Of a stretch of DNA of 64,000 bases, positions 24,122 to 24,350 are shown one piece after another. The translations under genes and the position numbers were made by a program. A model generated the notes under the pieces. That model did not search any database, had not been told where the DNA came from, and worked only from the letters and a program-made list of their open reading frames with translations. This DNA is from Escherichia coli (GTDB taxonomy: Bacteria > Pseudomonadota > Gammaproteobacteria > Enterobacterales > Enterobacteriaceae): the NCBI RefSeq assembly GCF_016026235.1, contig NZ_CP065613.1; one strand, given 5' to 3'. The first letter of the stretch is position 1. Every line of letters begins with the position of its first letter.

Positions 24122-24149
24122 TCCAATCCCACCCTCTCCACATGGAGAA

Positions 24150-24265
24150 GGTGGGGTTAATTGCCTGATGCGCTTCGCTTATCAGGCCTACAAAACAAAG
24201 CGCAGTTTGTTGAATTTGCACGTTCTTGTAGGCCGGATAAGGCGTTTACGCCGCATCCGGCGCTG
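24150..24265. repeat. REP/BIME pair flanked by GC-rich palindromes (CCCTCTCC…GGAGAGGG type)
   Basis: GCCTGATGCGCTTCGCTTATCAGGCCTAC … GTAGGCCGGATAAGGCGTTTACGCCGCATCCGGC between mtlA and mtlD. Confidence 0.8.
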
Positions 24266-24350
24266 CCCCTCTCCTCACGGAGAGGGTTTGGGTGAGGGAA
24301 AAGCCTCACCCCAGCCCTCTCGGGTAAAAACATTGATGAAGGTTAATACT

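Follow-up and report, generated by a model that had tools for sequence, protein, structure and literature searches.

The window analysed here is a stretch of 64 kb whose source species is Escherichia coli, and mtlA is annotated at the homologous place in E. coli genomes. The subject of this work, the spacer between mtlA and mtlD, occupies exactly positions 24122-24350. It is 229 bp long, the same length as in strain K-12, and is followed by the ATG of mtlD at 24351. Read 5′ to 3′ on the coding strand, the spacer consists of a left hairpin, an inverted repetitive extragenic palindromic (REP) sequence, a linker, a REP, a GC-rich element and the mtlD leader. The original prediction, made from the letters of the window, had described two inverted REPs and GC-rich palindromes at this place, and the REP pair as well as both strings quoted there, CCACCCTCTCCACATGGAGAAGGTGGGG (24129-24156) and GCCCCTCTCCTCACGGAGAGGGTTTGGGTGAGGG (24265-24298), were located in the spacer. 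The following features were identified:

24119-24121, plus strand: mtlA stop codon TAA; the first stable hairpin starts 4-7 nt downstream.
24125-24158, plus strand: left hairpin, with arms at 24125-24140 and 24143-24158 (88% complementary, repeat search) and the core CCCACCCTCTCC-ACAT-GGAGAAGGTGGG at 24128-24155.
24163-24191, plus strand: y-like inverted REP (iREP), GCCTGATGCGCTTCGCTTATCAGGCCTAC, with CTAC at its end (repeat search, folding).
24192-24227, unstranded: 36-nt linker of the L type of bacterial interspersed mosaic elements (BIMEs), including TTGAATTTGCA (BIME-1 linker description, PMC3333891).
24228-24261, plus strand: z-like REP, GTAGGCCGGATAAGGCGTTTACGCCGCATCCGGC, with GTAG at its start (repeat search, folding).
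24267-24321, plus strand: BoxC-like five-arm element Y1-R1-R2-Y2-Y1′ (repeat search, profile hidden Markov model (HMM), cross-species alignment), with the arms Y1 CCCTCTCC (24267-24274), R1 GGAGAGGG (24279-24286), R2 GGGTGAGGG (24290-24298), Y2 CCTCACCC (24304-24311) and Y1′ CCCTCTC (24315-24321).
24322-24350, plus strand: conserved leader of mtlD with its translation initiation region, GGGTAAAAACATTGATGAAGGTTAATACT; the ATG starts directly after it, at 24351 (cross-genus identity).

Both kinds of repeat in this spacer are already known, and the composite that they form is itself ordinary. The new finding is the GC-rich element at the right end, a BoxC-like copy which is absent from the published list of 23 copies and which represents an ancient conserved structure. 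This element, spelled CCCTCTCC-TCAC-GGAGAGGG-TTT-GGGTGAGGG-AAAAG-CCTCACCC-CAG-CCCTCTC (24267-24321), harbours a perfect 8-bp hairpin formed by Y1 and R1 (24267-24274 / 24279-24286), and a second hairpin of 18 bp with 89% complementarity (24280-24297 / 24304-24321). R1 has alternative partners, pairing either with Y1, which gives two hairpins, or together with R2 against Y2 and Y1′, which gives the single 18-bp hairpin. The predicted stabilities of these two folds are about equal, with a median difference of -0.5 kcal/mol. For the RNA of the whole spacer, a row of hairpins is predicted, with a folding energy of -109.6 kcal/mol (z = -8.8).

The family of the GC-rich element was assigned with a profile HMM, built from the 23 published K-12 copies of the TMECO/BoxC repeat and scanned against the window with nhmmer. 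The four best matches were the left arm of the lldD–trmL palindrome (E = 1.4e-7), mtl positions 24267-24298 (E = 0.0024), 24304-24321 (E = 0.2), and the right arm of the lld palindrome (E = 1.3). A fifth match (E = 3.8) also fell within the lld left arm, and no locus besides mtl and lld was matched in the window. Word counts in the 64 kb point the same way: CCCTCTCC occurs four times against 0.7 expected, a count reached in none of 100 shuffles, while CCCTCACCC occurs three times against 0.22 expected and is confined to the mtl and lld sites. The hairpin CCCTCTCC-N-GGAGAGGG is found once, with 0.00 expected. Judged by these matches, the mtl right element and the outer arms of the lldD–trmL palindrome are one family, as the original prediction had proposed, namely the known BoxC/PIT/TMECO repeat, and no new family is involved. 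The comparison with published repeat families that had been suggested along with it places the REP pair among the BIMEs, and the GC-rich arms in BoxC together with the 38.7-kb palindrome. The repeat was reportedly named BoxC by Bachellier et al. in the 1990s, and PIT element by Hoyne et al. in 2000.

TMECO is the name used for the BoxC/PIT repeat by Holder et al. (2015, PMC4666352), who give the consensus CCCTCNCCC-N3-6-GGGNGAGGG-N3-GGGNGAGGG and list 23 copies in K-12. The strict consensus had zero matches anywhere in the window, and a relaxed pattern matched 24268-24297 only. Because its arms are 8 nt long and not 9, the mtl copy fails the strict consensus and is missing from the published 23. 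In other respects it resembles the family closely. The mtl element is intergenic and has the same arms in the same order, CCCTCNCC(C), loop, (G)GGNGAGGG, 3 nt and GGGTGAGGG. It also consists of a type-A-like copy on the plus strand, followed by an inverted, truncated type-B-like copy, as in the published inverted pairs; its loop reads CAG on the plus strand and CTG in the inverted copy, and resembles the published type B copy 8. Besides the 8-nt arms, the E. coli mtl copy differs from the family in having TTT instead of TTA in loop 2, and in an inverted partner without the last arm. It differs further in its history, since the family is reported as unstable, whereas the copy at mtl is fixed within E. 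coli and has been conserved from genus to genus, Salmonella included.

This conservation was followed in the mtlD loci of 80 Enterobacteriaceae species (about 4 kb each, labelled L0xx), from which the mtlA–mtlD spacers were extracted. In 66 of the 80 species, the five-arm element and the leader end the spacer, just upstream of mtlD. More than 20 named genera are represented, including Escherichia, Salmonella, Citrobacter, Klebsiella, Enterobacter, Kosakonia and Lelliottia, as well as Pluralibacter, Phytobacter, Cedecea, Buttiauxella, Siccibacter and Mangrovibacter. Median identity to E. coli was 0.94 for the 36 stem columns and 0.93 for the leader, compared with 0.53 for the four-fold degenerate sites of mtlD in the same genomes. 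The strict TMECO pattern is matched by the orthologous element in 24 of 66 other species. According to Holder et al., TMECO is 'completely absent' in Salmonella (PMC4666352); both Salmonella loci of our set (L020 and L027) carry the mtl element, with one arm mutated. On this sequence conservation, the right element is under purifying selection and has been kept at its orthologous position across Enterobacteriaceae.

The same loci bear on a different reading, in which BIME and BoxC are neutral or selfish repeats that accumulated in a tolerant spacer without any role in the operon, and in which the conservation of the BoxC part stems from gene conversion with other copies of the family or from hitch-hiking with the nearby ribosome-binding site. 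Both kinds are indeed dispersed repeats without an agreed function, which suits this reading. It does not suit it that the stems are 94% identical, against 53% at four-fold sites, in species whose spacers are otherwise unalignable, or that pairing is preserved by compensatory changes. The element moreover persists in Salmonella, where the family is reported absent and gene-conversion donors would be lacking. We therefore regard neutral accumulation as an unlikely explanation of the locus.

The compensatory changes concern the 18-bp helix, in which 93% of the cells are paired, compared with 33-57% when the partners are slid. Changes on both sides were found in 6 pairs against 1.3 in shuffles, and none of 500 shuffles reached 6. 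RNAalifold also returned the 18-bp helix. The Y1·R1 hairpin retains at least seven contiguous pairs in 64 of 67 sequences. Parsimony on the mtlD tree gave 14 origins of mismatches which can still pair as G·U on the sense strand, and 4 of the antisense equivalent, A·C. This excess hints, with moderate force, that selection acts on a structure of the mRNA. A conserved small open reading frame in the spacer is unlikely, as the loops and the spacer differ in length by numbers of nucleotides that are not multiples of three.

Within E. coli, the element and the mtlD start were present as a single copy in 5404 of 5426 genomes, and were at least 99% identical in 4898 of them. The mtl element does not share the instability among strains known for BoxC, which is visible at the other family member of the window. 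The features found between lldD and trmL are:

38680-38710, minus strand: BoxC/TMECO type A copy (K-12 TMECO 17), with its inner end truncated by an insertion sequence (IS) scar; its profile match is the best in the window.
38711-38745, unstranded: 35-bp palindrome CTGTCTCTTGATCAGATCTCCTGATCAAGAGACAG, which replaces the interior of the BoxC pair and is identical to an IS4-family (IS50-like) end.
38746-38766, plus strand: remnant type B BoxC/TMECO copy (K-12 TMECO 18), GGGGGAGGGCCGGGGTGAGGGG (profile match).

The pair corresponds to TMECO 17 and 18 of Holder et al. (2015, PMC4666352). It is polymorphic in E. coli, being full in K-12, shortened by a 12-bp deletion in O157, and absent in two strains; the scar allele of this window, with the 35-bp palindrome inside, was found in 791 of 5426 genomes. 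The core is identical to the terminal inverted repeat of an IS4-family (IS50/Tn5-like) element, which forms no part of the mtl element. Differently from a complete IS4-family element, lldD–trmL has no transposase gene, and the end sequence alone lies inside the BoxC pair. The lld locus fits the published picture of an unstable BoxC and shows IS activity at such a repeat, and the mtl copy behaves oppositely. That the mtl element is near-universal and single-copy in E. coli, while the lld pair was gained, lost and rearranged, is a further point against neutral accumulation at mtl. The scar gives substance, at lld, to the idea of IS insertion contained in the original prediction.

IS4-family ends were also seen beside BoxC-like sequences elsewhere. 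In plasmid PV023002, the end found at lld abuts a BoxC-like hairpin (CCCTCTCCCTGAGGG directly followed by CTGTCTC...). An O157:H7 chromosome possesses an IS copy with the palindrome and a BoxC half (GGGGAGGGCCGGGATGAGGGG) inside its end, the other end resembling a Tn5 outside or mosaic end. The sequences concerned are those at 2529-2560 in L091, and at 2501-2552 and about 3925-3945 in L092. These cases suggest that this IS targets BoxC hairpins or recombines with them.

The remaining parts of the mtl spacer are far more variable. The original prediction had described the REPs as bracketed by GC-rich palindromes. That these two are equivalent is not supported: the left hairpin (24125-24158) was unmatched by the BoxC profile and, in the species sampled, is restricted to Escherichia, whereas the right element is the conserved five-arm structure. 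The two are nevertheless connected, as 21 nt of the left hairpin recur in direct orientation, 86% identical (18/21), in the first hairpin of the right element, at a spacing of 135 bp. Judging from this repeat, the left hairpin represents a direct, since diverged duplicate of the BoxC hairpin with which the right element begins. Each E. coli genome holds it at a single place, and the possibility that it is a common flanking motif of BIMEs was thereby ruled out. In the set of 80 species, left hairpin and REP pair were confined to E. coli and E. albertii (L010, L011). Four alleles of the spacer were distinguished in E. coli:

O157:H7: 94 bp, no REPs, left hairpin absent.
K-12 and this window: 229 bp, two REPs, left hairpin present.
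FDAARGOS_1301: 318 bp, four REPs, left hairpin present.
EcN: 417 bp, six REPs, left hairpin present.

The number of REPs thus varies by strain (0, 2, 4 or 6), as at BIME-2 or atypical BIME loci. The REP-less junction, in which the whole 135-bp unit is missing, was present in 872 of 5426 E. coli genomes. The difference between 229 and 94 bp is 135 bp, which is the spacing of the CCCTCTCC direct repeats, and the two alleles therefore differ by exactly one unit of hairpin plus BIME. E. albertii already possesses the left hairpin and two REPs, which makes deletion, through slippage between the direct repeats, the more parsimonious course. From these sequences we favour the inference that the 94-bp O157-type allele arose by loss of the 135-bp unit.

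Such variation is what would be expected if the Y-R-R arms formed an intrastrand triplex or cruciform in DNA that stalls replication and makes the site a deletion hot spot, as in the 'genomic instability' model of TMECO. Consensus TMECO oligonucleotides form an intrastrand purine-motif triplex in vitro as single-stranded DNA, and rearrangements between E. coli strains are more frequent at TMECO loci than at control sites (PMC4666352). The 135-bp indel exactly at the CCCTCTCC direct repeats, the changes in REP number, and the lld pair with its deletions and IS scar agree with this. However, the BoxC-like element is the stable part of the locus and is conserved across genera, and the E. coli copy with its 8-nt arms does not match the triplex consensus that has been published. 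In double-stranded DNA, and by dimethyl sulfate footprinting in vivo, Holder et al. observed no triplex (PMC4666352). The sense-strand G·U excess points to RNA, and instability accounts for the variation but not for the conservation. We consider a non-B DNA structure improbable as the explanation of the locus.

What fills the slot from the mtlA stop to the BoxC-like element differs by genus, and may be a BIME, a single REP, an ERIC-like (enterobacterial repetitive intergenic consensus) element or an extra BoxC. In Citrobacter and Salmonella it holds one REP, of the local type. An insert of about 125 bp (approximately 1281-1400) occupies the slot equivalent to the E. coli BIME in Citrobacter werkmanii (L015), C. 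youngae CCUG 30791 (L019) and Enterobacteriaceae RIT691 (L055). By eye, this insert, recognised in these three loci and not in the window, resembles an ERIC or intergenic repeat unit (IRU) (…GAATCCCCAGGAGC…GTGACTGGGGTGAGCGAGG…). In Cedecea neteri (L066), a second BoxC that matches the strict consensus on the minus strand lies just upstream of the conserved mtl element (1334-1500), and L059 and L072 harbour partial second copies beside it. From these extra copies it follows that BoxC copies accumulate next to each other.

The presence of other mobile elements in the equivalent slot, the extra canonical BoxC beside the conserved copy in Cedecea, and a REP layer that is present or absent and varies in number by strain all favour neutral accumulation. 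The proposal that the spacer is a hot spot for the insertion of IS or miniature inverted-repeat transposable elements is supported for the slot after the mtlA stop, with its varied inserts by genus, and not for the conserved element. Outside the mtlA–mtlD spacer, the 4-kb loci gave only six matches to the BoxC family, all in three Enterobacter genomes. Inverted canonical BoxC/TMECO pairs lie downstream of mtlR (approximately 3665-3841) in L031, L032 and L034, and in these three species only; they agree with the expansion of the family that has been reported for Enterobacter.

The REP pair is an ordinary BIME, composed of a y-like iREP, an L-type linker and a z-like REP. By definition, REPs are imperfect palindromes, 20-40 nt long, that have a conserved GTAG on the 5′ side of the foot, or CTAC when inverted (PMC3333891). 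Both units possess these feet, and each folds as a hairpin; they lie in inverse orientation, with the 36-nt linker between them. The repeat is extragenic, between two coding sequences, and of high copy number, as a 271-nt query with the spacer had a median of at least 23 places per E. coli genome among the matches listed, compared with exactly one place per genome for the non-REP flanking parts. Similar to BIME-1 of the RIP type, the pair consists of inverse imperfect palindromes of 29-34 nt with CTAC and GTAG feet, one y-like (GCCTGATG...) and one z-like (GCCGGATG...); it has a linker of about 36 nt with the TTGAATTTGCA motif, is extragenic, and would be transcribed within the operon. The z-like unit is called so only, since the subtypes z1 and z2 were not distinguishable. 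Differently from BIME-1, the mtl locus of other strains has tandem expansions like those of BIME-2, and it behaves as an 'atypical' BIME and not as a fixed BIME-1. In general, REPs are recognised and cleaved by the RAYT transposase TnpA-REP, a biochemical trait of these repeats (PMC3333891). The name REP321 was ruled out for the mtl REPs, as REP321/RIP321, an array of 11 units, is located at about 4.294 Mb of the K-12 genome. In the RefSeq annotation of MG1655, no repeat features are listed under the mtlA–mtlD spacer.

L linkers of BIME-1 often hold a site for IHF, and BIMEs bind gyrase and Pol I (PMC3333891). An architectural role could be built on this, with IHF bound at the linker (RIP/RIB type) or gyrase at BIME-2-type arrays organising the topology of the region. 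In the K-12 allele, the linker matches the IHF consensus with one mismatch, a level reached by 2.4% of random 36-nt windows, which agrees with such a role. In the window, however, the best match, ATTCAACAAACTG (24203-24215, minus strand), has two mismatches and is equalled by 19% of random 36-nt windows. The consensus is degraded in this strain, differently from typical BIME-1, and the match in its linker is not significant. Since the linker is also replaced or absent in many strains, and the conserved BoxC-type part is left unaddressed, we consider this explanation very improbable. None of the three alternatives explains the cross-genus conservation; for the variable layer, each of them may still apply.

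An Rfam scan of the spacer found no family at the gathering threshold, and the BoxC-like element was without any match. The only matches, of 40.2 and 21.6 bits, lay over the z-like REP and were to naRNA4, derived from REP325, whose gathering score is 59.5. The 40.2-bit match to this nucleoid-associated RNA covers 24231-24287, that is the z-like REP and the first BoxC hairpin. Most likely, the partial match reflects REP similarity only.

Taken together, the spacer probably consists of three layers of different age with a role in mRNA structure: an old BoxC-type element, mobile REPs beside it, and a left hairpin that is a duplicate. The first layer would be the ancient five-arm element adjoining the ribosome-binding site of mtlD. 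The second would be the REP pair upstream, mobile and expandable RAYT-associated DNA that is limited to Escherichia among the species sampled. The third would be the left hairpin upstream of the REP pair, which together with the BIME forms the 135-bp unit bounded by direct CCCTCTCC repeats. The whole spacer would be transcribed within the mtlADR mRNA and fold into a row of stable hairpins. These could block 3′-to-5′ exonucleases or define processing sites, and the stability and translation of mtlA would thereby be uncoupled from those of mtlD and mtlR, which would help to set their ratio. At the core of this function would stand the conserved BoxC-type part, to which the REPs, functionally of the same type, would be a dispensable supplement. 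In a motif prediction between 23900 and 24600, based on -35/-10 hexamers and on GC hairpins followed by a T-run, no sigma-70 promoter-like and no intrinsic-terminator-like sites were found on either strand.

Stabilisation of the mRNA 3′ end by the spacer hairpins, one of the roles suggested in the original prediction, is plausible by analogy with other operons. Newbury et al. (1987) reportedly found that REP sequences stabilise the mRNA upstream of them, and translation of the upstream gene is reported to be lowered where a REP lies no more than about 15 nt from the stop codon (Liang, Rudd and Deutscher 2015). Similar to the REP stabilisers of the malE–malF paradigm, the mtl spacer has stable GC-rich hairpins between two cistrons of a sugar-uptake operon; the likeness to malE–malF is a functional analogy only, as the mtl side is known here from sequence. 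Similar to the stop-proximal REPs that lower upstream translation, the first mtl hairpin also starts 4-7 nt past the mtlA stop, but it is not itself a REP. A hairpin within 15 nt of the mtlA stop was present in 59 of 81 minimum-free-energy folds, a count taken without a control set. The claim that a hairpin is always located within this distance was not upheld, and the count is suggestive only.

A reason for selection on the intercistronic element can be found in the balance of MtlA and MtlR, which is central to the regulation of the operon. In the current regulatory model, EII-Mtl (MtlA) titrates MtlR, with CRP anchoring and EII-Mtl sequestration (2026, PMC13421365). Binding of MtlR to the intercistronic RNA was considered and dropped, as that study explains MtlR otherwise and the spacer is unmentioned in it. 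As a more specific and only tentative proposal, the BoxC-like element might act as a bistable intercistronic RNA, with R1 paired either with Y1 or with Y1′, conserved since the ancestor of the Enterobacteriaceae and tuning the ratio of mtlA to mtlD and mtlR.

Several points weigh against a role in mRNA structure. The action of the hairpins as mRNA barriers or processing sites is itself a reading of the sequence, and the covariation cannot separate RNA hairpins from hairpins of single-stranded DNA or from cruciforms. The G·U excess (14 vs 4, approximately p = 0.03) could partly stem from a transcription-associated C-to-T bias on the non-template strand, and the conservation of the leader may merely reflect the translation initiation region of mtlD. 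The REP pair is a dispensable layer, as 872 genomes do well without it. Promoter or terminator activity and an association with gene classes have not been found for BoxC/PIT elements (Holder et al. citing Maher's group, PMC4666352). Finally, the BoxC-type arms are entirely absent from the Pantoea group, in which two unrelated GC hairpins take their place. In Pantoea and relatives (L073, L074, L077-L080, L082-L087 and L089), the spacer is about 94 bp long, and the hairpin GGGGCGGGnnnGCCCGyCC occurs twice, about 95 nt upstream of mtlD. This pair may be a functional analogue of the two-hairpin fold. Among searchable papers, nothing relevant was found on mtlA/mtlD with REPs or stem-loops, or on the stability or translation of the mtl spacer.

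We know of no function demonstrated for BoxC/PIT/TMECO in about 30 years. The window offers a contrast between two copies of this family, one at lld that is unstable and bears an IS scar, and one at mtl that is fixed and about 94% identical across genera with saturated synonymous sites. The mtl copy is under clear purifying selection and lies in an operon that has been studied well and is regulated through the balance of MtlA and MtlR. It lends itself to a concrete test by simple mutation. The natural alleles with 0, 2, 4 and 6 REPs are a ready series for measuring the contribution of the REPs. If the element were indeed a bistable functional RNA, the dispersed BoxC family would derive from or copy such an operon element, and mtl would be the place to learn the role of BoxC. 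Wide orthologous conservation of most other K-12 BoxC loci would remove the special status of the mtl copy, though not its family assignment.

A second BoxC inside an operon is K-12 TMECO no. 19, listed between pstB and pstA in mid-operon (Holder et al. 2015, Table S2). Upstream of the mtl spacer, codon 633 of mtlA (24110-24112), three codons ahead of the stop, is GCT (Ala) in the window and in FDAARGOS_943, and GGT (Gly) in K-12, O157:H7 and FDAARGOS_1301; Ala633 is a rare variant of the MtlA C-terminus.

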